A stretch of 64,000 bases of DNA, from assembly GCA_037146775.1 (NCBI GenBank), contig JBAWWL010000001.1:197464-261463 (forward strand). Direction: 5' to 3'. Numbering within the stretch: position 1 is the first letter of the stretch; each line of letters begins with the position of its first letter. Under the pieces are notes generated by a model. The model was not told the DNA's origin and made no database searches. It saw only the letters and a list, made by a program, of their open reading frames with translations. Shown here one piece after another: positions 23,699-37,685 of the stretch. The DNA comes from Candidatus Omnitrophota bacterium (lineage in GTDB: Bacteria; Omnitrophota; Gorgyraeia; Duberdicusellales; 4484-171). A program made the translations under genes and the position numbers.

Positions 23699-24928
23699 TT
23701 GTTGCTAAAACTTAAAAAAAGCTCGAAAAAACGTCTTGAAACGCAAAGGCGGCGGTCACGAGGGAGGGCGGAAGTATATTTTGATTACAACGCGACAACT
23801 CCTCTGGATAAGAGGGTTCTGGAAAAAATGTTGCCCTATCTGGAAACTTTCTATGGAAACCCTTCCTCGATATATCGTTTTGCGCAAAGTGCACGCAAGG
23901 CCGTGGAAGATGCCCGGGAAAACATCGCCAAATTAATTTGCGCATCGCCCGAGGAAATTATTTTTACCTCCGGCGGTACCGAGGCAAACAATAGTGCCTT
24001 AAAAGGAATAGCTTTTTCTCAATGTTCCCGGGGTAAACATATTATTACCTCCGCAATAGAACACCAGGCTGTTTTGAATCCCTGCGGTTTTCTGAAAACG
24101 ATGGGTTTTGAGGTGAGCTATGTTGGTGTCGATGAGTACGGGATGGTGCGCTTAGATGAGTTAAAGAAGAATATAAGAGACGATACCATTCTAGTTTCGA
24201 TTATGCACGCTAACAACGAGGTGGGAACGATTCAGCCCATAGAAGAGGTAGGAAGTATTTGCAGGGAGCGGGAAATATATTTTCATACCGATGCAGTTCA
24301 AACTGCGGGTAGAATCCCTTTGAACGTGAAGGATCTGGGGGTTGATTTGCTTTCTTTTTCAGCTCACAAGCTGTATGGCCCAAAAGGGGTGGGAGCATTA
24401 TATGTAAGAAAAAAAACTCCTCTGCACCCGCTTATCCACGGCGGTAAACAGGAACGCGGTATGCGCGCAGGAACAGAGAACGTCGGCGGTATCGTGGGTT
24501 TTTCGGAAGCGGCAACAATTGCCGGGCAATATATGCAGCAAGATCAGGCGAGGGTGGGGGTGTTACGTAAGAAGCTGGAAGAGGGTATTTTGAAGTATAT
24601 TCCTGAAGTAAAAGTCAATGGACATCCAAAAAAAAGGTTATATAATACTTTAAATGTTTCGATAAAACATACGGAAGGCGAAAGCGTTCTGATTAACTTG
24701 GACTTTGAAGGTATTTGTGCTTCCGGCGGTTCTGCCTGCGCTTCCGGATCTCTGGAGGCCTCACACGTTCTTCTGGCCATGGGTTTATCTCCTGCACTTG
24801 CGCGGGGAGCGATACGTTTCAGCTGCGGAAGATATAACACCAAAGAGGAAGTAGACAGAGTTTTGAAGGTTTTGCCCTCTATCGTGGATAAGTTAAGGAG
24901 TATGTCGTCGTCCTGGCAGGGTAGGTAG
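23699..24928 (+). CDS. iscS: cysteine desulfurase (NifS/IscS class V aminotransferase)
   Basis: YFDYNATTP N-terminus, the PLP-lysine region SFSAHKLYGPKGVGALY and the active-site SGGSACAS. TTG start; the unusual basic N-terminal extension leaves the start uncertain. Confidence 0.85.
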   Translation: MLLKLKKSSKKRLETQRRRSRGRAEVYFDYNATTPLDKRVLEKMLPYLETFYGNPSSIYRFAQSARKAVEDARENIAKLICASPEEIIFTSGGTEANNSALKGIAFSQCSRGKHIITSAIEHQAVLNPCGFLKTMGFEVSYVGVDEYGMVRLDELKKNIRDDTILVSIMHANNEVGTIQPIEEVGSICREREIYFHTDAVQTAGRIPLNVKDLGVDLLSFSAHKLYGPKGVGALYVRKKTPLHPLIHGGKQERGMRAGTENVGGIVGFSEAATIAGQYMQQDQARVGVLRKKLEEGILKYIPEVKVNGHPKKRLYNTLNVSIKHTEGESVLINLDFEGICASGGSACASGSLEASHVLLAMGLSPALARGAIRFSCGRYNTKEEVDRVLKVLPSIVDKLRSMSSSWQGR

Positions 24929-24931
24929 TGT

Positions 24932-25846
24932 ATGGATAGCAAAGAAGCTTTAGTAAAGAAAATTTTAAAACTAAAAGAAAAAAGAAAAGCTGTTTTGCTG
25001 GCTCATAATTACCAGATTCCCGAAATCCAGGATTTAGCGGATTTTGTGGGGGATTCGCTGGAATTATCGAAGACTTCCAAGAACCTGGATTCTTCCCTTA
25101 TCGTTTTTTGTGGCGTTAGGTTTATGGCGGAGACGGCAAAAATTCTTTCTCCCCGCAAAAAAGTTCTTTTACCTGCCCTGGCGGCGGGCTGTCCTCTGGC
25201 GGATACGATTAACCTGGATGAGCTTTTACGTTTGAAAGCCACGCATCCCGATGCCTGGGTAGTAAGTTACGTAAATACTTCTGCTCAGATAAAAGCAGCC
25301 AGCGATGTCTGTTGTACTTCCGGTAATGCCGTTACGGTGGTCAAGAATGCACCTTCCCGAAAGATAATTTTTGTTCCTGACAAAAATTTAGGCTGGTGGG
25401 TACAAAAGAATGTTCCTGAAAAAAATATAATTCTCTGGCAGGGTTCCTGCTATGTCCACGAGCAGTTTACTTTAGAGGAACTGGAAGGAGCCAGAAAGAT
25501 ATTTCCTGACGCCCCAATTTTAGCTCATCCCGAATGCAGAAAAGAAATTTTGCAAAAAGCCGATTCCGTGGTTTCTACCGCCGGTATGCTCAAGTACGTA
25601 AAGCAATCTTCTTCCAAACGGTTTATCGTCGGGACAGAAGAGGGGCTGATCCATAAATTGAAGAAAGAGAATCCGGGTAAGGAGTTTTATTCTTTAGGTG
25701 CGGCGAAAATATGTGTGAACATGAAAAAAACCACTCTTCTGGAGCTTTATACATCTTTGGAGAAAGAAGTCCATGAGATCCATCTCGATAAAGAAATAAT
25801 AGAAAAAGCAACCATAGCTTTAGAGAGAATGGTGAGCTACACTTAA
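24932..25846 (+). CDS. nadA: quinolinate synthase A
   Basis: LLAHNYQ motif, Fe-S cluster cysteines and NadA-length domains. Confidence 0.85.
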   Translation: MDSKEALVKKILKLKEKRKAVLLAHNYQIPEIQDLADFVGDSLELSKTSKNLDSSLIVFCGVRFMAETAKILSPRKKVLLPALAAGCPLADTINLDELLRLKATHPDAWVVSYVNTSAQIKAASDVCCTSGNAVTVVKNAPSRKIIFVPDKNLGWWVQKNVPEKNIILWQGSCYVHEQFTLEELEGARKIFPDAPILAHPECRKEILQKADSVVSTAGMLKYVKQSSSKRFIVGTEEGLIHKLKKENPGKEFYSLGAAKICVNMKKTTLLELYTSLEKEVHEIHLDKEIIEKATIALERMVSYT

Positions 25847-25985
25847 CTAAAAATAGAGACCTGCAAATTTTTATAAATCAGAAATCCAATAGCTCGATTA
25901 TACTCACCATTAGTCCTAAAGCGAAGTCAAAAGATCAAATTTCAAACAAATCCAAAGTTAAAAACCAAAAATCCTTGCCGGCAGG

Positions 25986-26037
25986 CCCTCGGCTTCCCGA
26001 CTCGCCGAGGCGGACGCCGCGAGGCGAGCAGGCACGC
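25986..26037 (+). other. GC-rich structured island in an AT-rich intergenic region (hairpin CCTCGGC/GCCGAGG)
   Basis: About 80% GC over some 60 bp. 7-bp stem at 25987-25993 and 26004-26010 with a 10-nt loop, followed by GAGGCG repeats and A6/T5 runs. Possible nadA terminator or small structured RNA. Confidence 0.25.
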
Positions 26038-26130
26038 AAAAAAGTTTTTGGTTTGGAAAATTTAGGTTCTGGGTTTATTTATGGTTGAGGGTTTTTTGAT
26101 TTAGGTTTTATTTTTATTTACTTTTAAAAT

Positions 26131-27183
26131 ATGAAAAAGAAGATAGCGGTTGGCCTAAGCGGTGGGATTGACTCGAGTTTTGCCGCTTATCTCCTTGTCA
26201 GACAAGGCTGGGATGTGGTGGGTTTTACCTTGAAATTTTATCCCCAGGAGAATCGTTGTTGTGATTTGGATAGTCTCTATGAGGCTCAGAGGTTGTGCCA
26301 TAAGCTTGGTATCCCTCATTACGTGATAGATGCCGGAGAGTTATTCAAAAAAGAAATAATCGCTTATTTTATTGAAAGTTATCTAAAAGGAATGACCCCT
26401 AACCCTTGTGCATTTTGCAACCGTTTCATTAAATTCGGATACTTTCTTGAAAAGGCCAAATCCCTGGGTATTGATTATGTGGCTACCGGGCACTATGCCC
26501 GGATAGCGAAGAAAAAGGATGTATTTCTTTTAAAGCGGGCTAAAGATAATAAAAAATCACAGGAATATTTTCTTTCTTTGATAAAACCAGCCGTACTGGG
26601 AAAACTGGTTTTTCCCTTAGGTAACTATCTTAAAGAAGAGGTGAAGAAGATAGTCCAAAAAGAAAAAGTTATATTTAAACCAAGAAAAGAAAGCCAGGAT
26701 ATCTGTTTCGTGGAGGAGCAGTCATACGCGCATTTCATAGAGAAGAACACCTGTGATTTCAAACGTTATGAAGGAGATATCCGGCACGTAAACGGAACCG
26801 CGCTGGGAAAACACAAAGGTATTTATCGCTTTACGTATGGCCAGCGGGGAGGCTTAGGTATTGGCTGGAGTGAACCGCTTTACGTCGCAGCTATCGATGC
26901 GCGGACGAATACCGTTGTTGTAGGAGAAAAAAAATATCTTTATAAAGATATTTTTTTAGTGCAATCGTTGAATTGGTTTAGCCCGCCGGAAAAATATCGA
27001 ACCATTAAGGTGAAGATACGCTATAATAGTCCATGGTATGATTGTCGGCTAAAAATCGACGGCCAGGTTGTTACCGTTTCTCTTAAGGAAAAGGTTGCAG
27101 CGATTACTCCCGGGCAGATTGCGGTTTTTTATCATAACGATATGGTGGTGGGTGCGGGAATCATCTCTAAAAATACGGCATGA
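26131..27183 (+). CDS. mnmA: tRNA-specific 2-thiouridylase
   Basis: PP-loop IAVGLSGGIDSS, catalytic cysteines, and C-terminal barrel domains. Confidence 0.9.
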   Translation: MKKKIAVGLSGGIDSSFAAYLLVRQGWDVVGFTLKFYPQENRCCDLDSLYEAQRLCHKLGIPHYVIDAGELFKKEIIAYFIESYLKGMTPNPCAFCNRFIKFGYFLEKAKSLGIDYVATGHYARIAKKKDVFLLKRAKDNKKSQEYFLSLIKPAVLGKLVFPLGNYLKEEVKKIVQKEKVIFKPRKESQDICFVEEQSYAHFIEKNTCDFKRYEGDIRHVNGTALGKHKGIYRFTYGQRGGLGIGWSEPLYVAAIDARTNTVVVGEKKYLYKDIFLVQSLNWFSPPEKYRTIKVKIRYNSPWYDCRLKIDGQVVTVSLKEKVAAITPGQIAVFYHNDMVVGAGIISKNTA

Positions 27184-28055
27184 GCATGGGTGTGCAATGC
27201 CGGAATGTATCTATAAAAAAACATAATGATCGGCGTCACTGTCTTATGAATTCCTTAACGAAAAAATACACAAAACTTAAAAAAACTTTAAAGGGATTGG
27301 GTTCCGGTATTATCGCTTTTTCCGGCGGCCTCGACAGCGGCTTGCTGGCAAAAGTGGCACGTGACTGTTTAGGGGCAGAGGTTATCGCGGTAACGGCATG
27401 TTCTCCTACGTATCCCGCAGGCGATTTGCGCAAGGCCAAGATTATTGCGCGCGAAATAGGCATACGGCACCTCGTGGTCAAAACAGACGAATTCAAGGAT
27501 AAGAATTTTACGGCAAATTCCAGAAATCGTTGTTATTGGTGCAAGAAAAAACTTTTTTCGAAATTAAGGACACTGACGAGTCGTTACGGCTCCACCTATA
27601 TTATGGACGGTACCAATTTTGACGACAGAAGAGACCATCGCCCCGGGCTTATAGCCAACAAGGAATATAGCGTTAAAAGTCCTCTCTATGAATGCGGATT
27701 TACCAAAAAAGATGTTCGTAATTTGGCCAAGCTATTAAAGCTTTCTTTCTGGAATCAACCTTCGCAGTCATGTTTGTCATCAAGGATTCCTTTTGGGCAG
27801 GCGATTACTCTTTCGCGCATCGAACGGATTGGTCAGGCCGAGCGTATCTTGAGGAATTTTTTCGGCAATGATATCCTTTTGCGCGCCAGGGACCATAATG
27901 AGTTGGTACGTATTGAGCTGGAAAAGAAAGGGTGGACGCAGCTGGTAAAATCTGATATAAATAGATTGCTAAAAGGCCTAAAAAAGACAGGTTATACGTA
28001 CATAACTTTTGATCTGGAAGGATATATTCCGGCGGGCTTACGCAGGCAAAATTAA
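27180..28055 (+). CDS. LarE-like / TIGR00268-type PP-loop ATP pyrophosphatase
   Basis: PP-loop IIAFSGGLDSGLLA and the conserved CxxC...C region. ATGA overlap with mnmA. Confidence 0.6.
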   Translation: MSMGVQCRNVSIKKHNDRRHCLMNSLTKKYTKLKKTLKGLGSGIIAFSGGLDSGLLAKVARDCLGAEVIAVTACSPTYPAGDLRKAKIIAREIGIRHLVVKTDEFKDKNFTANSRNRCYWCKKKLFSKLRTLTSRYGSTYIMDGTNFDDRRDHRPGLIANKEYSVKSPLYECGFTKKDVRNLAKLLKLSFWNQPSQSCLSSRIPFGQAITLSRIERIGQAERILRNFFGNDILLRARDHNELVRIELEKKGWTQLVKSDINRLLKGLKKTGYTYITFDLEGYIPAGLRRQN

Positions 28056-28095: not shown

Positions 28096-28710
28096 ATGAA
28101 AGGCTTGGGTATTTTAGCTTTAGGATTTTTTTTACTCGTAGCGGCTGGTTGTTCATCCGCTCCGGTAGAGAGCCTTCTGATAGATAGCTTTGAAGGCGAG
28201 ATCAATAAACAGACTATAGACTACGGTACCTCCGAAGGAACGGTATTGATGGTGAGCGCGGATATACAACAGAAAGTATGCGGGGAGCAGTCGCTTAAGA
28301 TTGAGTATGATTTAAAACCTTCGGGTTATATGTGGATAGCGCGAGGATACAATTTAGACGTAAAAAGCGCGGCGCAGTGGCTTATTACACCGCAGCAGAT
28401 CGTATGGAAGAAATACAATGCTATTAGTCTGCAGATGTATGGGAGTAATTCCGGCAGTGTCGTCGCTTTTGATATAAAAGATGCCGGAGGAGAGGTCTGG
28501 CGGTTTTTGATTGATGACGATTTTAGCGGCTGGAAAGAAATTGTATGCCTATTTTCAGGATTTTTTGTGCGCAAAGATTGGCAACCAGAAACAGCACAAA
28601 AAAATGATACCATTGATTTTCCGATCATGAGTTTTCAGTTTGAACCGCGTTTACCCGGCAAGGGAATGTATTATTTTGATTGTGTAAAATTGGTACGTGT
28701 TAAAGAGTGA
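28096..28710 (+). CDS. hypothetical lipoprotein
   Basis: Strong RBS AGGAGG. Signal peptide with lipobox LLVAAGCSS. Confidence 0.55.
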   Translation: MKGLGILALGFFLLVAAGCSSAPVESLLIDSFEGEINKQTIDYGTSEGTVLMVSADIQQKVCGEQSLKIEYDLKPSGYMWIARGYNLDVKSAAQWLITPQQIVWKKYNAISLQMYGSNSGSVVAFDIKDAGGEVWRFLIDDDFSGWKEIVCLFSGFFVRKDWQPETAQKNDTIDFPIMSFQFEPRLPGKGMYYFDCVKLVRVKE

Positions 28711-28742: not shown

Positions 28743-29000
28743 ATGTCTGCTGAGTTTTTGGTCGCTAGCTGTCATTATATTGATGAAGTCGGCACTTTGA
28801 TTGGAGGAGAAGTCTTGAAAGGGCGGATTGAGGAGGGCGAATGGGGGGCAACCGCCTCTGGCAAAAAGTTTCTGGTGTCGAAAATGGAGTTTCAAGGCGA
28901 CCGCAGGGTCAGCGCGAGCGAGCATGAGAAGGTTAATCTCTATGCTATACATATTTCGCAAACGTATGTGCGGGCGGGAGACACTCTTTATTTTTATTAA
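28743..29000 (+). CDS. hypothetical small protein (85 aa); doubtful
   Basis: Only an ORF in the gap before the PqqD gene; weak RBS and no recognisable motif. Confidence 0.2.
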   Translation: MSAEFLVASCHYIDEVGTLIGGEVLKGRIEEGEWGATASGKKFLVSKMEFQGDRRVSASEHEKVNLYAIHISQTYVRAGDTLYFY

Positions 29001-29038: not shown

Positions 29039-29329
29039 ATGGAAACTAAAAAGCAAAATCCGCTGGCGAACCCTTCTATCGTATTGCGCGAAGAATTCGA
29101 CGATTGGGCCCTTCTTTTTGACCCGGATACGAACGATATCTTCGCCATAGATCCGGTAGCGGTATTTATCTGGAAGCTTCTTAACGGGAAACGCAGCTGC
29201 AAGGCTATCCTGGAAGAATTAAAAGAGTGCTGCGACGATATACCCGAAGACGCCGGAACGTATGTGAATGATTTTATCCGGCAGTTGGAAGAGCGGGGTT
29301 TAGTTGGATATGAATCAACTCAAAACTGA
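29039..29329 (+). CDS. PqqD-family peptide chaperone (RiPP recognition element)
   Basis: 96 aa. Pattern VLREEFDDWALLFDPDTNDIFAIDPVAVFIWKLLNGKRSCKAILEEL...FIRQLEERGLV is typical of PqqD/RRE proteins. RBS AAGGAGA. Confidence 0.8.
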   Translation: METKKQNPLANPSIVLREEFDDWALLFDPDTNDIFAIDPVAVFIWKLLNGKRSCKAILEELKECCDDIPEDAGTYVNDFIRQLEERGLVGYESTQN

Positions 29330-30464
29330 TGAGGGTATAAAACTTGTACGTAGCCCGCGTTCCGTAGAGATCGCAATAACCAATACCTGCAATTTACGTT
29401 GCGCATACTGCAGCCATTTCACTAGCGCCGCTGATGTTCCTGGGGATGTTTCCCTCGAAGATTGGCTCTGTTTCTTCGAAGAATTAAACCGCTGTTCGGT
29501 ATTGAAAGTATGTTTGGATGGCGGGGAGCCGTTCCACAGAAAAGATATAATTCAGATTATCCAAGGTATCGTTGCCAACCGCATGCGTTTCTCTGTTTTA
29601 AGTAACGGTACTTTGCTGACTGACGAAATTGCTGCATTCTTGGCTTCAACGCGAAGATGTGATTTTATCCAAATTTCCCTGGACGGTTCTATTGCGACTA
29701 CGCATGATGCCCTGCGGGGTGAAGGCAGTTTTCGGAAAGCTCTCGCAGGCATCCAGGCGCTTCAGAAACACAACATACCGGTTGCGGTCCGCGTTACTAT
29801 CCATAAGCATAATTTGAATCAGCTTGAAGAACTTACGCATTTTTTATTAGAGGAAATAGGGCTGCGCAGTTTTAGTACCAATGCCGCCTCGTATATGGGT
29901 TTATGCCGCAAGAATTCCAGCCAAGTACAACTGACTGTCGGAGAGCGTTCCTTGGCAATGGAAAAACTTCTTACGCTTAGCAATAAGTATCCCAATCGTA
30001 TCAGTGCTATGGCAGGGCCTTTAGCCGAAGCGAAAGGTTGGCTTGAAATGGAAGAAGCCCGGCACACAAGAAAGGCTCAACCAGCCGGGCGAGGATATTT
30101 AACGGGCTGTGCAGGCCCGATGAGTAAAATTGCTCTTCGTCCCGACGGTGTCTTTGTTCCTTGTATTCTGTTGAGCCATATAGAACTAGGAAAGATGAAC
30201 AAAGATGATTTTCGAGCTATTTGGCAGTCTCATCCGGCGCTAAAAAGTTTACGCAGCCGGCATTTGATTCCGTTAAACGAATTCGCCTTTTGTAAAGATT
30301 GTCTTTATGTAGATTATTGTGCCGGCGGCTGTCCGGCCTTAAGCTATACTGTTGTGGGTAACATGAATCATCCCAATCCCGACACCTGTTTGCGCAAGTT
30401 TCTTGCGGAGGGCGGATATCTGCCGCGAAAAGGATTTTTGGAGGCTACGACAGTTGTATGTTAA
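29304..30464 (+). CDS. radical SAM/SPASM-domain peptide-modifying enzyme
   Basis: CxxxCxxC (CNLRCAYC) radical SAM motif. The C-terminus carries the SPASM cysteine array (GCAG...C, CKDCLYVDYCAGGCPA). Overlaps the PqqD end. Confidence 0.85.
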   Translation: MDMNQLKTDEGIKLVRSPRSVEIAITNTCNLRCAYCSHFTSAADVPGDVSLEDWLCFFEELNRCSVLKVCLDGGEPFHRKDIIQIIQGIVANRMRFSVLSNGTLLTDEIAAFLASTRRCDFIQISLDGSIATTHDALRGEGSFRKALAGIQALQKHNIPVAVRVTIHKHNLNQLEELTHFLLEEIGLRSFSTNAASYMGLCRKNSSQVQLTVGERSLAMEKLLTLSNKYPNRISAMAGPLAEAKGWLEMEEARHTRKAQPAGRGYLTGCAGPMSKIALRPDGVFVPCILLSHIELGKMNKDDFRAIWQSHPALKSLRSRHLIPLNEFAFCKDCLYVDYCAGGCPALSYTVVGNMNHPNPDTCLRKFLAEGGYLPRKGFLEATTVVC

Positions 30465-31612
30465 CTGATGAGCGTATCGGTACGTCTGTTGATTCAGAGA
30501 AAAAACAAACCCCTCTCTTACGCTACTTGTATTTTTATCTTATTGATGGTTGTAACCTTAATTGCCGGCACTGCTGGATTAATCCCCGTTCCCAAGTTAG
30601 CCCTGGTGCTATACCCGGCGTGTTTCTTGATTTCGATCTTTTTAAGTCAATCGTGCAGCAAGCAAAACCTTTTGGCCTTAGGGGGATAAAACTGACCGGC
30701 GGAGAACCATTACTGCACCCCCGTATCGTGGACATACTGGCATTTTTGCAGAAAGAGGAATTTTCGGTGGTTCTGGAGACAAACGCGGTTCTCTGCAGCA
30801 CTGAGTTTGCCAAAAAGCTCAGCGCCCTAAAAAATATTTTTGTCAGCGTAAGCGTGGATGGTTCTTGCAGCCAGACTCACGACTGGATACGCCAGAGCGA
30901 GGGAAGTTTTGCGGCCGCCATAAAAGGGATCCAAACTTTTGTTTCCTCCGGCATACGGCCGCAAATTATCATGACGATTATGCGCCGCAATAAAGGCGAG
31001 ATCGAGCAGCTTATAAAAATGGCTGAAGGCCTAGGTATCGAATCGGTTAAATTCAATATTACCCAGCCTACTGCCCGGGCTACCACATTGCAGGAAAATG
31101 GCGAAACGCTTACTATCGCAGAGTTGGTGTCGTTGGGCACCTGGATTGAGCGCGAGCTTTCGAAAAAGACCTCTTTACGTATTGTATATAGCCATCCTCC
31201 TGCGTTCCAGCCGCTTGGCAAATTGTATGCAACTACAAAAGATTTCTGTGGTGCCTGCGGGGTCTTGAATATCCTGGGAGTGCTTGCCAACGGTTCCTAC
31301 GCTCTATGCGGTATTGGACAGACGGTCCCTGAATTGGTGTTTGGCCATGCAGCCTCTGACAGGCTTATTGATGTGTGGCAGCATAACGCCGCGCTTACGG
31401 CATTGCGGCAAGGGTTACCGCATAAACTTGAAGGTATTTGTCAGGCTTGTTTAATGAAAAGCCGTTGCCGCGGCCATTGTATTGCCGAAAACTTCTCCAT
31501 GCACAAAAATTTGTGGGCAGGGTACTGGTATTGTGAAGCAGCATACCAACAAGGCCTTTTCCCTTTAAGCCGATTATCCCCAAAACATAAAAACGTTAGT
31601 GTGAGTAATTAA
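30458..31612 (+). CDS. radical SAM/SPASM-domain peptide-modifying enzyme (second paralogue)
   Basis: CNLNCRHC radical SAM motif and C-terminal SPASM cysteines (CGAC...C, CQACLMKSRCRGHC). ATGA-type overlap with the upstream rSAM gene. Confidence 0.85.
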   Translation: MLTDERIGTSVDSEKKQTPLLRYLYFYLIDGCNLNCRHCWINPRSQVSPGAIPGVFLDFDLFKSIVQQAKPFGLRGIKLTGGEPLLHPRIVDILAFLQKEEFSVVLETNAVLCSTEFAKKLSALKNIFVSVSVDGSCSQTHDWIRQSEGSFAAAIKGIQTFVSSGIRPQIIMTIMRRNKGEIEQLIKMAEGLGIESVKFNITQPTARATTLQENGETLTIAELVSLGTWIERELSKKTSLRIVYSHPPAFQPLGKLYATTKDFCGACGVLNILGVLANGSYALCGIGQTVPELVFGHAASDRLIDVWQHNAALTALRQGLPHKLEGICQACLMKSRCRGHCIAENFSMHKNLWAGYWYCEAAYQQGLFPLSRLSPKHKNVSVSN

Positions 31613-31621
31613 GGAGGAGAT

Positions 31622-31846
31622 ATGCCCAAAAAAATCAAATGGACCAAACCACTCTTGAGGCCGGTAGATGGGTTAAAGAATGTTAGAGAAGGGGTGTCCT
31701 TGTCGTGTAATGATGGTAGTTCTGATGCGACCTCATGTAGCATGGGCAATAGCTTTTCTGGTGGTGACTGTACATCTTATGGCTCGAGCTATACTCCTCC
31801 GGTTTGCCCTGGCTATGGCTCTAGCTATTATTGCCCTATGGGTTGA
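31622..31846 (+). CDS. candidate RiPP precursor peptide (74 aa; Lys-rich leader, Cys/Ser/Gly/Tyr-rich core)
   Basis: Strong RBS AAGGAGGAGAT before the ATG. The translation was checked codon by codon. Five Cys at positions 29, 39, 50, 62 and 71; the YGSSY motif occurs twice. Encoded immediately after the two rSAM/SPASM genes. Confidence 0.6.
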   Translation: MPKKIKWTKPLLRPVDGLKNVREGVSLSCNDGSSDATSCSMGNSFSGGDCTSYGSSYTPPVCPGYGSSYYCPMG

Positions 31847-31893
31847 TGGTTTGTCAAATTCAGTAGTAGAATATTTTAGTAGATACCATAAGT

Positions 31894-32805
31894 ATGGTTA
31901 CGCCCGTCTATACATTGTTCTTGGAAGAGGAACTAAAGTGGTATATAACCGCTACCGAAGACGCATCTTCCTGGATGCATAAATTTGCCGCTATCATGCA
32001 GCTAGAACCTTCTTCTACGAACAGGTTTTCGAAGCTTATTTTTACTACTCTGCAGGTAGACCAGAAATTATCTTCCGCATTAGCCCGCACCCTGCATGAT
32101 TGTTCCGGCGATATCTTCCCTCCACAAGACTGGTGGTTTGAGGATTTAGGCTTGGTTAAGTTTTGGCGTAACCAACATAGCGAGCACATTATTTGTCAGC
32201 TTTCCGGCCAGTCTATATATGAGGTTGATATCAACAAAATGTCCTTATCTCTTCATGTTATCTATCAAAAAGCCATAGAAAAAGAAGGCTTGCCCTTACA
32301 TGCCGGTCTAGTAGAAAAAGAAGAGATGGGTGTAGTACTGGCAGCGCCTGGTTCTACCGGTAAATCAACCTGTTGTCGCCGCATTCCTTTTCCTTGGCAC
32401 GCTTTATGCGATGATGAAACGTTGCTGGTGCGTGATGTCCAAGGAAGTTTCTACGCACACCCTTTTCCGACTTGGAGCGAGTATCTTTGTAAGCGTTCCG
32501 AGCGGACATGGAATGTAGAAAGAAGGATTCCTTTGTCGGCAATATTTTTTTTAGCCCAATCAGAGACCGAGGAGTTAGCGGCTATAACTCAGGCGGAATC
32601 GGCAGCATTTCTCCACCAGCTGTCTTTACAAATTTACGGACGCGGCTTAAAACGGCTCAAAGCCAGCGAAGGAAAGAAACAATCCCGCTGTTTGTTTGAT
32701 AATGCCTGTCAGCTGGCCAAATCTTTACCGGCATATATGTTGCGTGTCAGCCGGGAGGGTAGATTCTGGGAGAAAATGGAGGAAGCTCTTGAAAGAGTCT
32801 GTTGA
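31894..32805 (+). CDS. HPr-kinase-like P-loop protein (HprK-related / ScmC-like)
   Basis: P-loop APGSTGKST in the position of the HprK C-terminal kinase-domain Walker A. About 300 aa. Sits inside the rSAM/PqqD cassette. Confidence 0.5.
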   Translation: MVTPVYTLFLEEELKWYITATEDASSWMHKFAAIMQLEPSSTNRFSKLIFTTLQVDQKLSSALARTLHDCSGDIFPPQDWWFEDLGLVKFWRNQHSEHIICQLSGQSIYEVDINKMSLSLHVIYQKAIEKEGLPLHAGLVEKEEMGVVLAAPGSTGKSTCCRRIPFPWHALCDDETLLVRDVQGSFYAHPFPTWSEYLCKRSERTWNVERRIPLSAIFFLAQSETEELAAITQAESAAFLHQLSLQIYGRGLKRLKASEGKKQSRCLFDNACQLAKSLPAYMLRVSREGRFWEKMEEALERVC

Positions 32806-33394
32806 CGTTAATTTTGCTTATTTTGGTGCAGGCCCCAGCATGAAGCCTACGATATGTGCGCATGACCTTCTTTCTGTTTTTGCGTACAACGAGAGAAAAA
32901 TTATCCGCGGCGATGTGGTGGTTTTTATATCTCCCTTGAATGGCCGAAAAATTGCTCACCGGGTTATTTGCGCCGGAAAGCAGCATATCAGGACTAAGGG
33001 TGACCACAATCGCTATGTGGATCCCTGGTTGCTTACCCCGCAGGATATTATTGGTCAGGTAGCCTATGTACAAAGAGGAAAAAAGAGAATTCGTATTTAT
33101 GGTGCAGTGCTGGGAGAGCTTTATGTAACCAAGATAAAAATAATGTGTTTTGTGCGCAAAAGCGCATCTTTTATTTTTGGTATGTGTTACCGTTATATAG
33201 CCCAAAAAAGTCTGTTCTACCGTTTGAGTAAATTTTTTCTTAAACCGCGGCTGGTGGTATTTAACCGGCCTGGAGGAGAAGACCTGCAGTTGGTGCTCGG
33301 CCATAGCTTTGTCGTTGGCCGCCGTATGCCCGGAAAAAACACATGGCATATCCGCCGGCCGTTTCGTCTTCTGGTAGATAAAGCATTCCAGTAA
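32696..33394 (+). CDS. S24/S26-family Ser-Lys peptidase (signal peptidase I-like); start likely near 32789
   Basis: GAGPSMKPT (the SMxPT serine box) and KGDHNRY (the Lys/GDxNR box) of signal peptidase I/LexA-type peptidases. No N-terminal TM anchor. The longest ORF overlaps the upstream gene, so the true start is probably TTG 32789 or nearby. Confidence 0.55.
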   Translation: MIMPVSWPNLYRHICCVSAGRVDSGRKWRKLLKESVDVNFAYFGAGPSMKPTICAHDLLSVFAYNERKIIRGDVVVFISPLNGRKIAHRVICAGKQHIRTKGDHNRYVDPWLLTPQDIIGQVAYVQRGKKRIRIYGAVLGELYVTKIKIMCFVRKSASFIFGMCYRYIAQKSLFYRLSKFFLKPRLVVFNRPGGEDLQLVLGHSFVVGRRMPGKNTWHIRRPFRLLVDKAFQ

Positions 33395-33456: not shown

Positions 33457-34653
33457 ATGAGCGTAATGCATAAAAGAATTACCTGGTTAGTCTGTGGTAA
33501 TTTTAACGGTTATCTCGATGACGGCGGCACCAACAGTACGTTGACGTTGTTGCGGGAATTACAGAAAAGAGGCGCTTCCTGCAGTGTGCAAGTTTTTCTT
33601 GGCTTGGGAAGTGTTGCGTCTCTGACGGCGTATGTTGCAAGAGTGAGAGATTTTGCCCACAGTGGCAGGATCATAATAAAAAAAGGCTACGTATCGTTTT
33701 ACGTAAAAAATATTCTTATTGAAGCACGCATCGTCAAGGAGAATATTTTTAAGCTGTATCATACGCGTGACGAAAAAGCGTTACGTGCCCTCACGCTCCA
33801 CATAAAAGCAATACTACGAATGACGCGGCCGGATATTATTATTACCAGCCAGGAAGATATTTTTTCTTTACGGGCGGCCGATGAATCAGGGATTCCTTGT
33901 TGCCATATTTTTTCGTCCGCGTGTTTTAAATTCCTCGATACGTTCAATATATACAAAAATGAATTCCGCGCATGCTTGGCAAAAACACTGGTAGTTACGT
34001 GTTCTTGTTTTCTAAAAAGAGATATAAGGAATATCTGGAATAAAAGAGCAATTTTATTACCGGCGCTGATTGACCGTATTTCATGCGTGGCCAAGAAGAG
34101 AAACCCGCGTTACATAACTTTCGTCAACTGTCATCCTCATAAGGGGGCAGTGATATTCTGGAATATAGCCAGAAAATTGCCGCATAAAAGATTTTTGGTA
34201 ATCGATAACCACGGATTTTTTCCGCTTAAGTCACCTCTGAAAAATGTCACTGTATTGCGTCGGCAATCAGACATGAAAAAAGTCTACCGGCTTACAAAAA
34301 TATTGCTTTTTCCCTCTCTTGTGGAGGAAAGCTATGGCATGGTTCTCGTTGAGGCGATGGCGAACGGTATTCCGGTTATCGCTAATCGCATAGAAGGCAT
34401 AAAAAATACTTTGCAAAAGGCAGGATTCCTTGTAGATATCAATCAAAGAGATAAAGATAAGAAAGATTATTTTTATAATTCCCTCTACCACATGAAAACA
34501 TATCAACAGTATGTGGCGTTAATTACCATGTTAGATTCCGATAGTGCGGTGTATAATAAAGCTTCGAAAAAAGCTCTGCAGGAAGCAGAAAGGATTATGA
34601 GCAGGCAGCGTCAAGCATTGGAGGGTTTCGCGGATCTTATCGCAAAGCGATAA
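33457..34653 (+). CDS. glycosyltransferase family 4 (GT1-type fold)
   Basis: C-terminal donor-binding motif EESYGMVLVEAMANGIPVIANRIEGI. Confidence 0.7.
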   Translation: MSVMHKRITWLVCGNFNGYLDDGGTNSTLTLLRELQKRGASCSVQVFLGLGSVASLTAYVARVRDFAHSGRIIIKKGYVSFYVKNILIEARIVKENIFKLYHTRDEKALRALTLHIKAILRMTRPDIIITSQEDIFSLRAADESGIPCCHIFSSACFKFLDTFNIYKNEFRACLAKTLVVTCSCFLKRDIRNIWNKRAILLPALIDRISCVAKKRNPRYITFVNCHPHKGAVIFWNIARKLPHKRFLVIDNHGFFPLKSPLKNVTVLRRQSDMKKVYRLTKILLFPSLVEESYGMVLVEAMANGIPVIANRIEGIKNTLQKAGFLVDINQRDKDKKDYFYNSLYHMKTYQQYVALITMLDSDSAVYNKASKKALQEAERIMSRQRQALEGFADLIAKR

Positions 34654-34717: not shown

Positions 34718-36451
34718 ATGAAAATAAGAAATATAGTCTGGCGTCGTTTTCTCCCGTATTTATACAGGTATCGGAAGCTACAGGTTGCTGTTATGGTTTT
34801 AAGCCTCCTGGCTATTCCGCTTGCCCTTTTGAGCCCTTACCTTGCGAAGCTGGTTATCGACAAGGCGTATATGGGCAAAGACCTGGCGTTATTTTTTATT
34901 CTTGCGGTAATAGGCGGTTTGGTCTTTGTGGTTACTGCTCTTATAAGCTCTTTGAATGATTATCTTTTAATGCGTATGAACCGCCGGGTTTGTTTTGATA
35001 TGGGAAGGGATATCTTCAGGCATCTCCAGAATCTGTCTTTAAGCTTTTTTGACACCAAGTCAGCCAGTGAACACATATATAAAATACATAATGATGTAAA
35101 TATCGTAAGTGCTTTTCTTTGTAACGCGTTGCCTCAAGGTGTCACCCTTGTCGTGCGATTTTTATGTATCTTCATCGTGGTGTTGCATCTTAACTGGAAA
35201 CTCGCTCTTTTTGCATTTTTTATGATTCCTGTAAGCTTCATCCACCCCTGTTTTTTCCGCAAACTGTTAAAAGAATCGACTACCGGAATGATAGAGAAAT
35301 CTCAAAGAATGTTCAGGTATCTTTGTGAAGTTTTTAGCCACACGCATCTGGTAAAAGCTTTTGGCAAAGAGGAATGCGAGACGCATCGGTTTGAGGTTGT
35401 TTCTCTGGAAAGATTCAACGTGGAGGCTACGCGCGATAAGTTGTTGAGTATAAGCGCTTTTTCCGGTTCTGTCCTAAACAAAATTATCAATGGCTTTATT
35501 GCCCTATATGGAGGGTATCAGGTTATTACCGGCGCTATGACGCTTGGTAGTTTCAGCGCGATAATGATTTATTCAGCCCAGCTTACAGGGCTTTCCAAAT
35601 TATTAGCCAAATTTTACGAAAATATCGCCATTAATTCGGTTTCTGTAGAGCGGTTGATTGAAATTTTAGATACCAAGCCAAAGATCGCAAACAAGAAAGA
35701 CGCTTTAGATTATCAAATCTTAAAGGGGAGTATCGACTTTAAAGACGTCTCTTTTGGGTATAAGGAAAACAGTTTTGTTTTGAAAAGTATGAATTTTGAA
35801 ATTACTCCTGGCTCGAAAATTGCCATTACCGGCCCTTCGGGGTGCGGGAAAACCACTTTGCTCTCGCTTATGTTAAGGATATATGACGTTAAAGACGGGG
35901 CTGTTTTGATCGATGGAATGGACATCAGGGATATGAGAATAGAGGCGCTTACGTCGCAAGTCGCCATAGTACTCCAGGAGCCTTTTTTATGGAACGATAC
36001 CATAGCGTGTAATATTCTGTATGGTATGGAGGGTGCCACTCAAAAGCAGATGGTTGAAGCGGCAAAAATTGCCGAGATACACGAGTTTATCGTGAGCCTT
36101 GAATGCGGTTACGATAGCGAAATCGGTGAAATGGCTTGTTTGCTTTCCGAAGGCCAAAAACAGCGTCTGGCCATTGCGCGTGCTGTTATAAAACGGCCGG
36201 CTGTCCTGCTTTTTGACGAAGCCTTTTCTTCTATAGATTCCGAAACCGAAAACAAAATCATAGATAATATTAATGGGCATCTTGCGGGTACCACTGTTAT
36301 AGTTGTTTCCCATAGAATTTCTACTATAAAAAGAATGGATGCGGTTTATTTCTTTGAGGGCCATTCCCATCTTGTGCGAAGTGCTCATTCCGAGCTTGTA
36401 AAAAGCAACGCGGCGTACAAGGAATTATTTACCGGTCAGCACGCCTCGTAA
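34718..36451 (+). CDS. ABC exporter, fused transmembrane and ATP-binding domains
   Basis: Six N-terminal TM helices, then Walker A GPSGCGKTT, signature LSEGQKQRLAIARA and Walker B LLFDEA. Confidence 0.85.
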   Translation: MKIRNIVWRRFLPYLYRYRKLQVAVMVLSLLAIPLALLSPYLAKLVIDKAYMGKDLALFFILAVIGGLVFVVTALISSLNDYLLMRMNRRVCFDMGRDIFRHLQNLSLSFFDTKSASEHIYKIHNDVNIVSAFLCNALPQGVTLVVRFLCIFIVVLHLNWKLALFAFFMIPVSFIHPCFFRKLLKESTTGMIEKSQRMFRYLCEVFSHTHLVKAFGKEECETHRFEVVSLERFNVEATRDKLLSISAFSGSVLNKIINGFIALYGGYQVITGAMTLGSFSAIMIYSAQLTGLSKLLAKFYENIAINSVSVERLIEILDTKPKIANKKDALDYQILKGSIDFKDVSFGYKENSFVLKSMNFEITPGSKIAITGPSGCGKTTLLSLMLRIYDVKDGAVLIDGMDIRDMRIEALTSQVAIVLQEPFLWNDTIACNILYGMEGATQKQMVEAAKIAEIHEFIVSLECGYDSEIGEMACLLSEGQKQRLAIARAVIKRPAVLLFDEAFSSIDSETENKIIDNINGHLAGTTVIVVSHRISTIKRMDAVYFFEGHSHLVRSAHSELVKSNAAYKELFTGQHAS

Positions 36452-36512: not shown

Positions 36513-37685
36513 ATGACGTACATGAAAAGATCGCAAACCATACCGGCTCAATATAGCGCACACATGGTCAATGCCGAAAAGTTTGTGGTGCTGTGCGTGC
36601 AGTATAATGGCGATGAATCTTTGCGGGAACAGGCAATGGCGTTCATCGCCGAGGGGATTGACTGGGAATATTTTGTTGATATTAGCGTAGCGCAAAAGAT
36701 TGCCGTCATGGTATATAACGTAATATACAAGATCGTACCACCCGAATGTATTCCTTGCTTTGTTTTTGACGCGCTGCGCAACGCATACCTTTATATAGTA
36801 TCGAAAACGCTTCTAAAACATACAGAGACCCTAAAGCTTTTAAGATTGTGTGCTCAGGCGCAAGTAAAGGTCGTGCCGCTTAAAGGGACTATTTTGGCGA
36901 AACGTCTGTACGGCCAAGTGCACCTGCGTGACTTAAGTTCGGATATTGATTTATTTATCGAAGAAAAAGATAAATTATGCGCGAGAGATATACTTGCCAG
37001 AGAAGGGTATGTTTTGCGTTTACGGGGTAACGACGATTATTCCGGGTATAATGAGTTTATGAAAGCAGGTTTTGGCAGTATTGACTTACAATGGAAGATA
37101 GTCGAGACTATTGATTGCAGCCGTTCCAGGCTAGAAGGTTTTTGGAGAGCCGTACAAAAAACGGAGGAGGAAGACATAACTTTTAGTGTGTTTCAAACGG
37201 AAGAATTATTGTTGTATCTTTGCGCCCACAGCATGAGCAAACATTGTTTCGGCCAGTTACGGCATATCTGCGATATACATCAGCTTTTGGTAGTGGAGCA
37301 TGCAGCGATCGACTGGAACCGCATCGTTGCGAAGGCAAAAGAATGGAATCTTTTAACTTCCTTGTATTGCGCGCTGTCGATGCGGCAATACTTTTTTAAA
37401 ATTTCTGTTGCGCCCGAAATAAAGAAAGTTTTAAAAATATCAAGGTTCAAGATTATGTTGCTAAAAGTATTTACGGATGAATTGGTCTTCTTCCGGCGGC
37501 AAAGCTTCCGGCGGCGCTTGGTAGACAGGTTTCTGGGTTTCGTTTTTTTTAGATTCGTTGAGGCGCGCAGCTTGAGAGATTACTTCTTTTTTGTTTTTCC
37601 TCCCAGGGAAGCGCTGCAAAGTAAAAGTTATCTTACCATGTTTTGGCGAGGATTGGGAAAGCTTACTTCGGTATTTGCACGATAA
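36513..37685 (+). CDS. nucleotidyltransferase-like protein (uncharacterised NTase family often seen in RiPP clusters)
   Basis: Central VVPLKGTILAKRLYG...DLSSDIDLFI region resembles pol-beta-type NTase GS...D.D motifs. The family assignment is from memory and unverified. Confidence 0.45.
   Translation: MTYMKRSQTIPAQYSAHMVNAEKFVVLCVQYNGDESLREQAMAFIAEGIDWEYFVDISVAQKIAVMVYNVIYKIVPPECIPCFVFDALRNAYLYIVSKTLLKHTETLKLLRLCAQAQVKVVPLKGTILAKRLYGQVHLRDLSSDIDLFIEEKDKLCARDILAREGYVLRLRGNDDYSGYNEFMKAGFGSIDLQWKIVETIDCSRSRLEGFWRAVQKTEEEDITFSVFQTEELLLYLCAHSMSKHCFGQLRHICDIHQLLVVEHAAIDWNRIVAKAKEWNLLTSLYCALSMRQYFFKISVAPEIKKVLKISRFKIMLLKVFTDELVFFRRQSFRRRLVDRFLGFVFFRFVEARSLRDYFFFVFPPREALQSKSYLTMFWRGLGKLTSVFAR

Follow-up and report, generated by a model that had tools for sequence, protein, structure and literature searches.

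Several described systems couple a short peptide with a radical S-adenosylmethionine (rSAM) enzyme that carries a SPASM domain. In the ranthipeptides and sactipeptides (freyrasin PapA/PapB, SCIFF/CteB and SkfA/SkfB), a short precursor with periodic cysteines is subject to PqqD-type leader recognition and is matured by a SPASM rSAM enzyme; PapA, the freyrasin precursor, contains repeated CX3D, short Cys-led units like the repeats described below. SPASM enzymes catalyze many chemistries, and thioether formation is the commonest fate of periodic cysteines in the ribosomally produced, post-translationally modified peptides (RiPPs) that depend on them. The pyrroloquinoline quinone (PQQ), mycofactocin and Qhp systems likewise combine a small peptide with a SPASM rSAM enzyme, some of them with a PqqD-type chaperone, a peptidase or an ATP-binding cassette (ABC) transporter. 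TIGRFAMs/NCBIfam (Haft) describes a further system, the SynChlorMet (SCM) cassette, which, as far as we could determine, is defined bioinformatically only. Here we analyze a small gene in a 64,000-nucleotide stretch of a Candidatus Omnitrophota contig (JBAWWL010000001.1, positions 197,464 to 261,463; hereafter the window). The gene lies at 31622..31846 on the + strand, as do the other window genes named below, and very probably encodes a divergent ScmA, the precursor that ribosomes make for a RiPP cassette of the SynChlorMet type.

The original prediction, made from the letters of the DNA, had described a 74-residue translation with five cysteines, a duplicated YGSSY motif and a strong ribosome-binding site, and our reading agrees on each count. 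The translation matches 31622-31846(+) exactly (74 amino acids plus stop). A Shine-Dalgarno (SD) sequence, AAGGAGG (31611..31617), sits 4 nt 5' of the ATG, directly after the stop codon of the preceding gene, scmF (TAA, 31610-31612). Residues 1-28 (31622..31705) form a predicted leader that holds a W7-T-K-P10-L-L12 motif (31640-31657), of the family form [YW]xxPxL, and a conserved glycine, G24. The predicted core, residues 29-74 (31706..31843), comprises five Cys-led repeats, in order CNDGSS, CSMGNS, CTSYGSS, CPGYGSS and CPMG, with the cysteines at 29, 39, 50, 62 and 71 (spacings of 10, 11, 12 and 9 residues). The C-xx-YGSSY unit occurs twice in the protein, and its two DNA copies read TATGGCTCGAGCTAT and TATGGCTCTAGCTAT. 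Pfam and NCBIfam look-ups of the peptide returned nothing relevant, and in NCBI an identical protein, from a Candidatus Omnitrophota metagenome-assembled genome (MAG), is labeled hypothetical.

The genes on either side identify the cassette. Upstream lie scmD (29039..29329), for a stand-alone PqqD-type peptide chaperone (a RiPP recognition element, RRE; TIGR04248, 111.4 bits against a cut-off of 100; Pfam PqqD, 9e-14), and two genes for rSAM/SPASM enzymes, scmE (29304..30464; TIGR04250, 581.5 bits, cut-off 400; CxxxCxxC and CX2CX5CX3C motifs) and scmF (30458..31612; TIGR04251, 506.9 bits, cut-off 400; both Cys motifs intact). Downstream follows scmC (31894..32805; TIGR04249, 297.5 bits, cut-off 125), for a P-loop protein with a fold like that of phosphoenolpyruvate carboxykinase (PEPCK) and HprK, a predicted precursor-peptide kinase. 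Since all four proteins exceed their NCBIfam cut-offs, the cassette is, by these models, a SynChlorMet cassette, and the small open reading frame (ORF) between ScmF and ScmC lies in the context that defines ScmA. The neighbors that had been named for it (a PqqD protein, two rSAM/SPASM enzymes, an HprK-like protein and a family 4 glycosyltransferase, GT4) are all present, the HprK-like similarity being weak.

We retrieved 80 ScmC loci from the genomes of GTDB species and located the cassette genes within each. ScmF is followed directly by ScmC in 46 loci, and the gap usually contains a + strand ORF of 47-122 amino acids (aa); when aligned, these gap ORFs show a leader like K-Y-E-K-P-x-L-x-x-L, then 3-10 repeats of the form C-x-x-G-[STNG]-x(3-6). 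A hidden Markov model (HMM) built from 40 cassette peptides of other genomes, with the window lineage excluded, was searched against 12,879 six-frame ORFs. The window ORF scored 31.7 bits (E=9.7e-8), and 94 ORFs were recovered at E<1e-3, 89 of them on the cassette strand. A family ORF is present in 35 of the 46 ScmF-ScmC gaps, the window ORF's own position, which bears out the earlier statement that it sits where precursors usually are. At least one family ORF was found in 61 of the 80 loci. The [YW]xxPx[LIVF] leader motif occurs in 86 of 87 family members, Gly stands at C+3 in 77 % of the repeats, and the Cys-Cys spacing has a mode of 10 residues (9-11 in 285 of 428 cases), so the conservation of small ORFs and of Cys periodicity in related cassettes that had been proposed as a check is indeed observed. 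In the 87-member alignment residues P10, G32 and C39 of the window peptide fall in invariant columns, and G24, C29, G42, C50 and G54 in columns with at least 90 % conservation.

Sequence-only searches were nearly blind to this family. A word-indexed homologue search of the window peptide found only itself and one peptide with 81 % identity (P0002), and an exhaustive phmmer search of 1.84 billion representatives found only itself and P0123, which is 47 % identical and occupies the same cassette position in its own locus (L084). Synteny was therefore needed to find these low-complexity peptides. We also note that 13 of 83 loci (the 80 plus L001-L003) contain 2-8 ScmA paralogues. Tandem paralogues with hypervariable cores are found in L008 (6659-7909), with several ORFs each in L038, L043, L021, L011 and L005, and some paralogues (L021, L066) reach 120-150 aa, with up to 19 Cys including CC pairs.

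For a coding test we used P0002, which is encoded on a metagenome contig (L001) with the same gene order as the window (85-aa ORF, PqqD, rSAM, rSAM, peptide, ScmC, peptidase, GT4). The two peptide genes are 72.9 % identical in DNA, and 40 of their 61 differences fall at codon position 3. In the peptide frame the ratio of nonsynonymous to synonymous change (pN/pS) is 0.17, close to the 0.22 of ScmF; the other two frames give 1.84 and 1.74. The SD sequence GTAAGGAGGAG is kept in L001, and its flanks have diverged. By this comparison the 74-aa frame is a real gene under purifying selection. A competing possibility is that this ORF is spurious and that an overlapping 100-aa ORF in another frame (31680-31982), or no ORF at all, is translated instead. 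In the window that frame runs open for 100 codons, and it is open across the homologous L001 stretch as well. However, its pN/pS is 1.84, the sequence past the peptide stop (31846) that it would need cannot be aligned with L001 because of indels, and the peptide frame belongs to a family present in 61 independent loci. Because of the contrast between 0.17 and 1.84 or 1.74 we regard the 74-aa frame as coding and the 100-aa ORF as spurious, as had been proposed at the outset; the opposite case has a negligible probability and is effectively refuted. The ORF at 31622..31846 is coding, is homologous to a cassette-wide peptide family, and has ScmC, ScmD, ScmE and ScmF as its neighbors. Synteny, conservation across the family and purifying selection support the central claim of the original prediction, that of a precursor for the adjacent PqqD and two rSAM/SPASM genes.

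Its treatment as a novel candidate did not hold up. Several cassette peptides match the NCBIfam model TIGR04252, "SCM_precur_ScmA" (curated cut-off 35 bits), including an Omnitrophota peptide (L012) that scores 39.1 bits, above the cut-off; the family was already catalogued as ScmA, although the model misses the window copy. A view of the SCM precursor as "not identified" is contradicted by the existence of TIGR04252. The model is narrow, matching 18 of the 87 cassette peptides at E<=0.01, so that in public genomes the majority of ScmA genes probably go unannotated or are labeled hypothetical, as in this MAG. Homology of the window peptide to recognized ScmA is supported by the leave-out HMM, by a BLASTP alignment with the TIGR04252-positive L012 peptide (36 % identity over 44 aa, E=2e-7), and by the intermediate P0123, which bridges the two (17.7 bits on TIGR04252, E=0.003). 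Likeness to the SynChlorMet family extends to the order ScmD-ScmE-ScmF-peptide-ScmC followed by a peptidase, the [YW]xxPxL leader and the spacing of the C-x-x-G repeats at about 10 residues; the differences are the missing TIGR04252 match, the Tyr inserted in two repeats (C-x-x-Y-G-S-S) and an embedded GT4 gene. On sequence grounds, then, we classify the window peptide as a divergent member of a catalogued, experimentally uncharacterized RiPP precursor family, and as no new kind of element. A search for papers on the SynChlorMet system under its names, gene names or TIGR accessions found none.

Five groups of observations weigh against our account, and we gather them here: (i) the window peptide gives no match to TIGR04252 even at E<=10, and hence none at its cut-off; (ii) ScmE and ScmF reach no curated thioether-maturase cut-off, with ScmE scoring 82 bits against 340 for PapB, 103 against 625 for StsB and 77 against 850 for AlbA, and ScmF scoring lower than ScmE; (iii) ScmC matches the HprK_rel_A model (TIGR04352) only over residues 131-188 and at 25.2 bits (E=7.6e-6) against a cut-off of 200, which places it outside that family, and its P-loop, APGSTGKS, departs from the HprK pattern GxxGxGKS; (iv) two of the five window repeats carry Tyr, not Gly, at C+3, and the Tyr content of the core is 10.9 %, four times the 2.8 % of the rest of the family; and (v) the searchable literature contains no characterized SCM product, so that we infer all of the chemical steps.

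The second group bears on the type of bond formed. ScmE and ScmF both have Pfam Radical_SAM and SPASM domains and a complete CX2CX5CX3C SPASM motif. Their CxxxCxxC motif begins near residue 29-30, which leaves no room for an N-terminal RRE; lacking a recognition domain of their own, they presumably depend on ScmD. The combination that marks sactipeptide and ranthipeptide systems, a SPASM rSAM enzyme with an RRE/PqqD element, is found here by Pfam in ScmE, ScmF and ScmD. Among the nearest relatives with solved structures are the thioether-forming SkfB and CteB, with similarity that spans only the rSAM core. The best non-SCM match of ScmE is WgkB, whose model name, rSAM_WgK_link, we take to denote a Trp-Lys crosslinking enzyme, and the PqqE and MftC models match ScmE partially. 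Only Cys and the Gly at +3 repeat with a fixed period, so any conserved chemistry must address each Cys unit. We give a Cys-derived thioether, the most likely bond type, about an even chance.

A realistic though less probable alternative is that the peptide is a genuine ScmA-type precursor whose rSAM enzymes form no thioethers. They might instead make C-C or C-O crosslinks (for example at the clade-specific Tyr, as three-residue cyclophanes), epimerize residues or turn Cys into another group, and the cysteines would then stay free, form disulfides or bind metal. The maturase scores below every cut-off, the WgkB match and the varied chemistries of SPASM enzymes all favor this alternative, as does the fact that the best-conserved partner of each Cys, Gly at +3, has no side chain. 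Against it, Cys alone repeats at a fixed period family-wide, aromatic residues are rare outside the window clade, thioethers are the usual outcome for periodic cysteines in SPASM-dependent RiPPs, and SkfB and CteB are among the nearest solved homologues. The cassette differs from the ranthipeptide and sactipeptide systems in having two distinct maturases and a stand-alone RRE, in the partner residue of Cys (Gly at +3 rather than Asp at +4), and in the addition of the kinase-like ScmC, an S26 peptidase and an NTP_transf_5 protein.

The third group concerns ScmC. Its AlphaFold2 (AF2) model has a predicted local distance difference test score (pLDDT) of 88 and a predicted template modeling score (pTM) of 0.88, and the top 50 PDB matches in a Foldseek search with this model are all PEPCKs (E to 3.7e-8, TM about 0.5). 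Residues H136, G156-K157-S158 and D173 are invariant among 25 ScmC sequences. The lasso-peptide precursor kinase BsfK has catalytic residues H148, K169-S170 and D186-D187, shown by mutagenesis, and acts on a precursor with a YxxPxL leader, stimulated by the PqqD-like BsfB1 (PMC10368454). The invariant ScmC residues correspond to this catalytic set, with a different glycine pattern in the P-loop. Because of the PEPCK/HprK-like fold and these matching residues, ScmC is plausibly a leader-dependent Ser/Thr kinase of the precursor, a prediction made by analogy.

The parallel with paeninodin-type and bsf lasso clusters (BsfA/BsfB1/BsfK/BsfN; PMC10368454) goes further. The window leader motif has the same form as the lasso-leader YxxPxL (PMC10368454), whose effect was tested in bsf on phosphorylation and leader removal, both BsfB1-dependent (PMC10368454). 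Both systems have a stand-alone PqqD-like RRE, an ABC exporter, an HprK-like P-loop protein with an H...GKS...DD motif (the kinase activity being a prediction for ScmC) and a nucleotidyltransferase gene, which in bsf is the predicted bsfN (PMC10368454). The SCM cassette differs in having no lasso cyclase or B2 protease and, in their place, two rSAM/SPASM enzymes and an S26-like peptidase; its core is a Cys-repeat peptide rather than a lasso core.

We also observed loci that lack ScmE and ScmF. These contain ScmD and ScmC (with an ABC transporter, NTP_transf_5 or peptidase) and a small ORF directly upstream of ScmD (L044 7045-7332, L052 7056-7361, L075 7430-7660 and L078 6129-6344) that matches the family HMM weakly (E 0.1-1.5). 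The K-[FY]-E-K-P-x-L leader is kept in these ORFs, and the core is Cys-free or Cys-poor, acidic and Pro-rich. Such loci suggest that the ScmD/ScmC module can work without radical SAM enzymes.

The fourth group traces to the clade of the window. In repeats 3 and 4 a Tyr is inserted ahead of the Gly (C-T-S-Y-G-S-S and C-P-G-Y-G-S-S). The YGSSY units are common to the window and L001 and absent from P0123, so that, as judged from these sequences, YGSSY is confined to the window/L001 clade and is no feature of the family. The cassettes of the window and of L001 both enclose the accessory GT4 gene (33457..34653 in the window; Pfam Glycos_transf_1, 3e-13), which in L001 comes after the peptidase. 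The locus of P0123 lacks it, and just 3 of the 80 other loci have a GT4 homologue at any position. Tyr/Ser-rich repeats may be linked to glycosylation, on the evidence of a single evolutionary lineage. The case for Ser and Tyr as substrates of the HprK-like kinase or of GT4 is only circumstantial.

The remaining cassette genes bear on what kind of product is made. After scmC come a gene for an S26/S24-like peptidase of the signal-peptidase-I type (32696..33394; Pfam Peptidase_S26 and NCBIfam sigpep_I_arch, 2.9e-11, both below cut-off), the GT4 gene, a gene for an ABC exporter with fused transmembrane and ATPase domains and no C39 peptidase domain (34718..36451; Pfam ABC_membrane and ABC_tran), and a gene for an NTP_transf_5 nucleotidyltransferase-family protein (36513..37685; PF14907, 2e-47). 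A peptidase homologue follows ScmC in 64 of the 80 loci, and homologues of the ABC exporter and of NTP_transf_5 occur in 31 each. Of the positions immediately preceding the first Cys, the best conserved is Gly at -2 (52 % of members), which suggests leader cleavage near the conserved glycine.

It is improbable, in our estimate, that the peptide is instead a small Cys-rich protein of the cassette with no exported product, whether a crosslinked subunit or cofactor peptide of an enzyme (as with PqqA, or with QhpC, which QhpD makes) or a peptide that binds metal. The same parts are used by the PQQ, mycofactocin and Qhp systems (PqqA/PqqD/PqqE, MftA/B/C and QhpC/QhpD), a small peptide and a SPASM rSAM enzyme, with a separate PqqD-type chaperone in the first two and a peptidase and ABC transporter in Qhp, and periodic Cys with Gly and Ser would be compatible with metal binding. 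The peptides of those systems, however, are turned into cofactors or enzyme subunits, and each has one conserved core, whereas ScmA cores are repetitive, hypervariable and often present as 2-8 tandem paralogues, which is typical of secreted RiPPs rather than cofactors. Across the 80 loci we found no conserved partner dehydrogenase or client enzyme; the recurring genes are those for the peptidase, the ABC exporter and NTP_transf_5.

Further observations concern the cassette boundaries and the surrounding genes. Directly upstream of scmD lies an 85-aa ORF (28743-29000) with no Pfam or NCBIfam match. It is present in L001 at 76 % amino acid identity, with codon position 3 accounting for 40 of the 63 nucleotide differences, and is therefore a real gene; no homologue turned up in the other 80 loci, and it may be a clade-specific cassette component. 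The start of the peptidase is uncertain (TTG 32696 or TTG 32789), and both candidates overlap the 3' end of scmC, the longest ORF by 110 nt (32696-32805). An overlap of at least 17 nt (TTG 32789) is unavoidable, because the stretch from the scmC stop to the catalytic-Ser motif GPSMKPT contains no start codon. The tblastn alignments of the peptidase likewise begin about 90 nt inside scmC in at least 9 other loci, which could be genuine overlap or could simply mirror the conservation of ScmC. A promoter and terminator scan of 28-38 kb gave counts no higher than in shuffled sequence and no attenuator after the peptide gene, and tRNA and Rfam scans of the window gave zero matches.

Just upstream of the cassette is a gene for a CBM11-like protein (28096-28710; Pfam CBM_11, 7e-19) with a lipoprotein-signal-like N-terminus (LLVAAGC). 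Before it lies a run of sulfur and cofactor genes (23699-28055) for a cysteine-desulfurase-like class-V aminotransferase, NadA, an MnmA-type tRNA 2-thiouridylase and a LarE-type sacrificial sulfur transferase, which is probably unrelated to the cassette. Downstream, a long polysaccharide-type locus (37975-63626) includes genes for a MerR/excisionase-like helix-turn-helix protein, a PilZ protein, two Wzz/GNVR chain-length or tyrosine-kinase proteins, a Poly_export/SLBB protein, a GAF histidine kinase with a response regulator, a Schlafen/AlbA_2 protein with tetratricopeptide repeats (TPR), and large GT4 and GT2-GT9 fusion proteins.

We propose the following pathway for the divergent ScmA of the window, in which the binding of the leader to ScmD and the reaction of the rSAM enzymes with the Cys repeats are drawn from established knowledge of RRE-dependent rSAM RiPPs. 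The N-terminal 24-28 residues or so would serve as leader, and the stand-alone ScmD would bind its W-x-x-P-x-L motif (residues ~7-12, by analogy) and present the C-terminal core, five C-x-x(-x)-G-S/N units about 10 residues apart, to ScmE and ScmF. These two enzymes would install one modification per Cys unit, most likely a Cys-derived thioether crosslink. ScmC would probably phosphorylate a Ser/Thr hydroxyl in a leader-dependent manner, and the NTP_transf_5 protein, in the window clade also GT4, may decorate the peptide further. The S26-like peptidase, as candidate leader peptidase, would remove the leader, and the ABC transporter would export the product. Within this scheme the thioether as bond type, the phosphorylation, the glycosylation and the cleavage site of ScmA are speculative.

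A bolder combined reading, which we consider rather doubtful as a whole, would make SCM a chemically new RiPP class. Each C-x-x-G unit of about 10 residues would be modified by two rSAM/SPASM enzymes (for example with a Cys-to-Gly alpha-carbon or i/i+4 thioether and a second radical modification), followed by phosphorylation by ScmC and decoration. The window clade, with YGSSY and GT4, would be an O-glycosylated sub-class, and the rSAM-less, Cys-free cassettes would reveal ScmC/ScmD as an independent leader-guided tailoring system.

As a single locus, the peptide is what a RiPP specialist would expect beside such genes. The main by-products of its analysis are a sharper family definition, a gap in the curated model, and the parallel with phosphorylated lasso-peptide clusters. 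The SynChlorMet cassette has a wide distribution among uncultured anaerobes, with approximately 980 ScmC homologues found across Desulfobacterota, Omnitrophota, Aminicenantes, Nitrospirota, Chlorobi, anammox bacteria and methanogenic archaea, and we found no published product or chemistry for it. Its precursor family extends far beyond what the curated ScmA model detects, is marked by a leader with a lasso-like [YW]xxPxL motif and by a decapeptide repeat, C-x-x-G, and is probably, by analogy, tailored by an HprK-type kinase. The family provides concrete, testable substrates for the action of two co-operating rSAM/SPASM enzymes on periodic cysteines.

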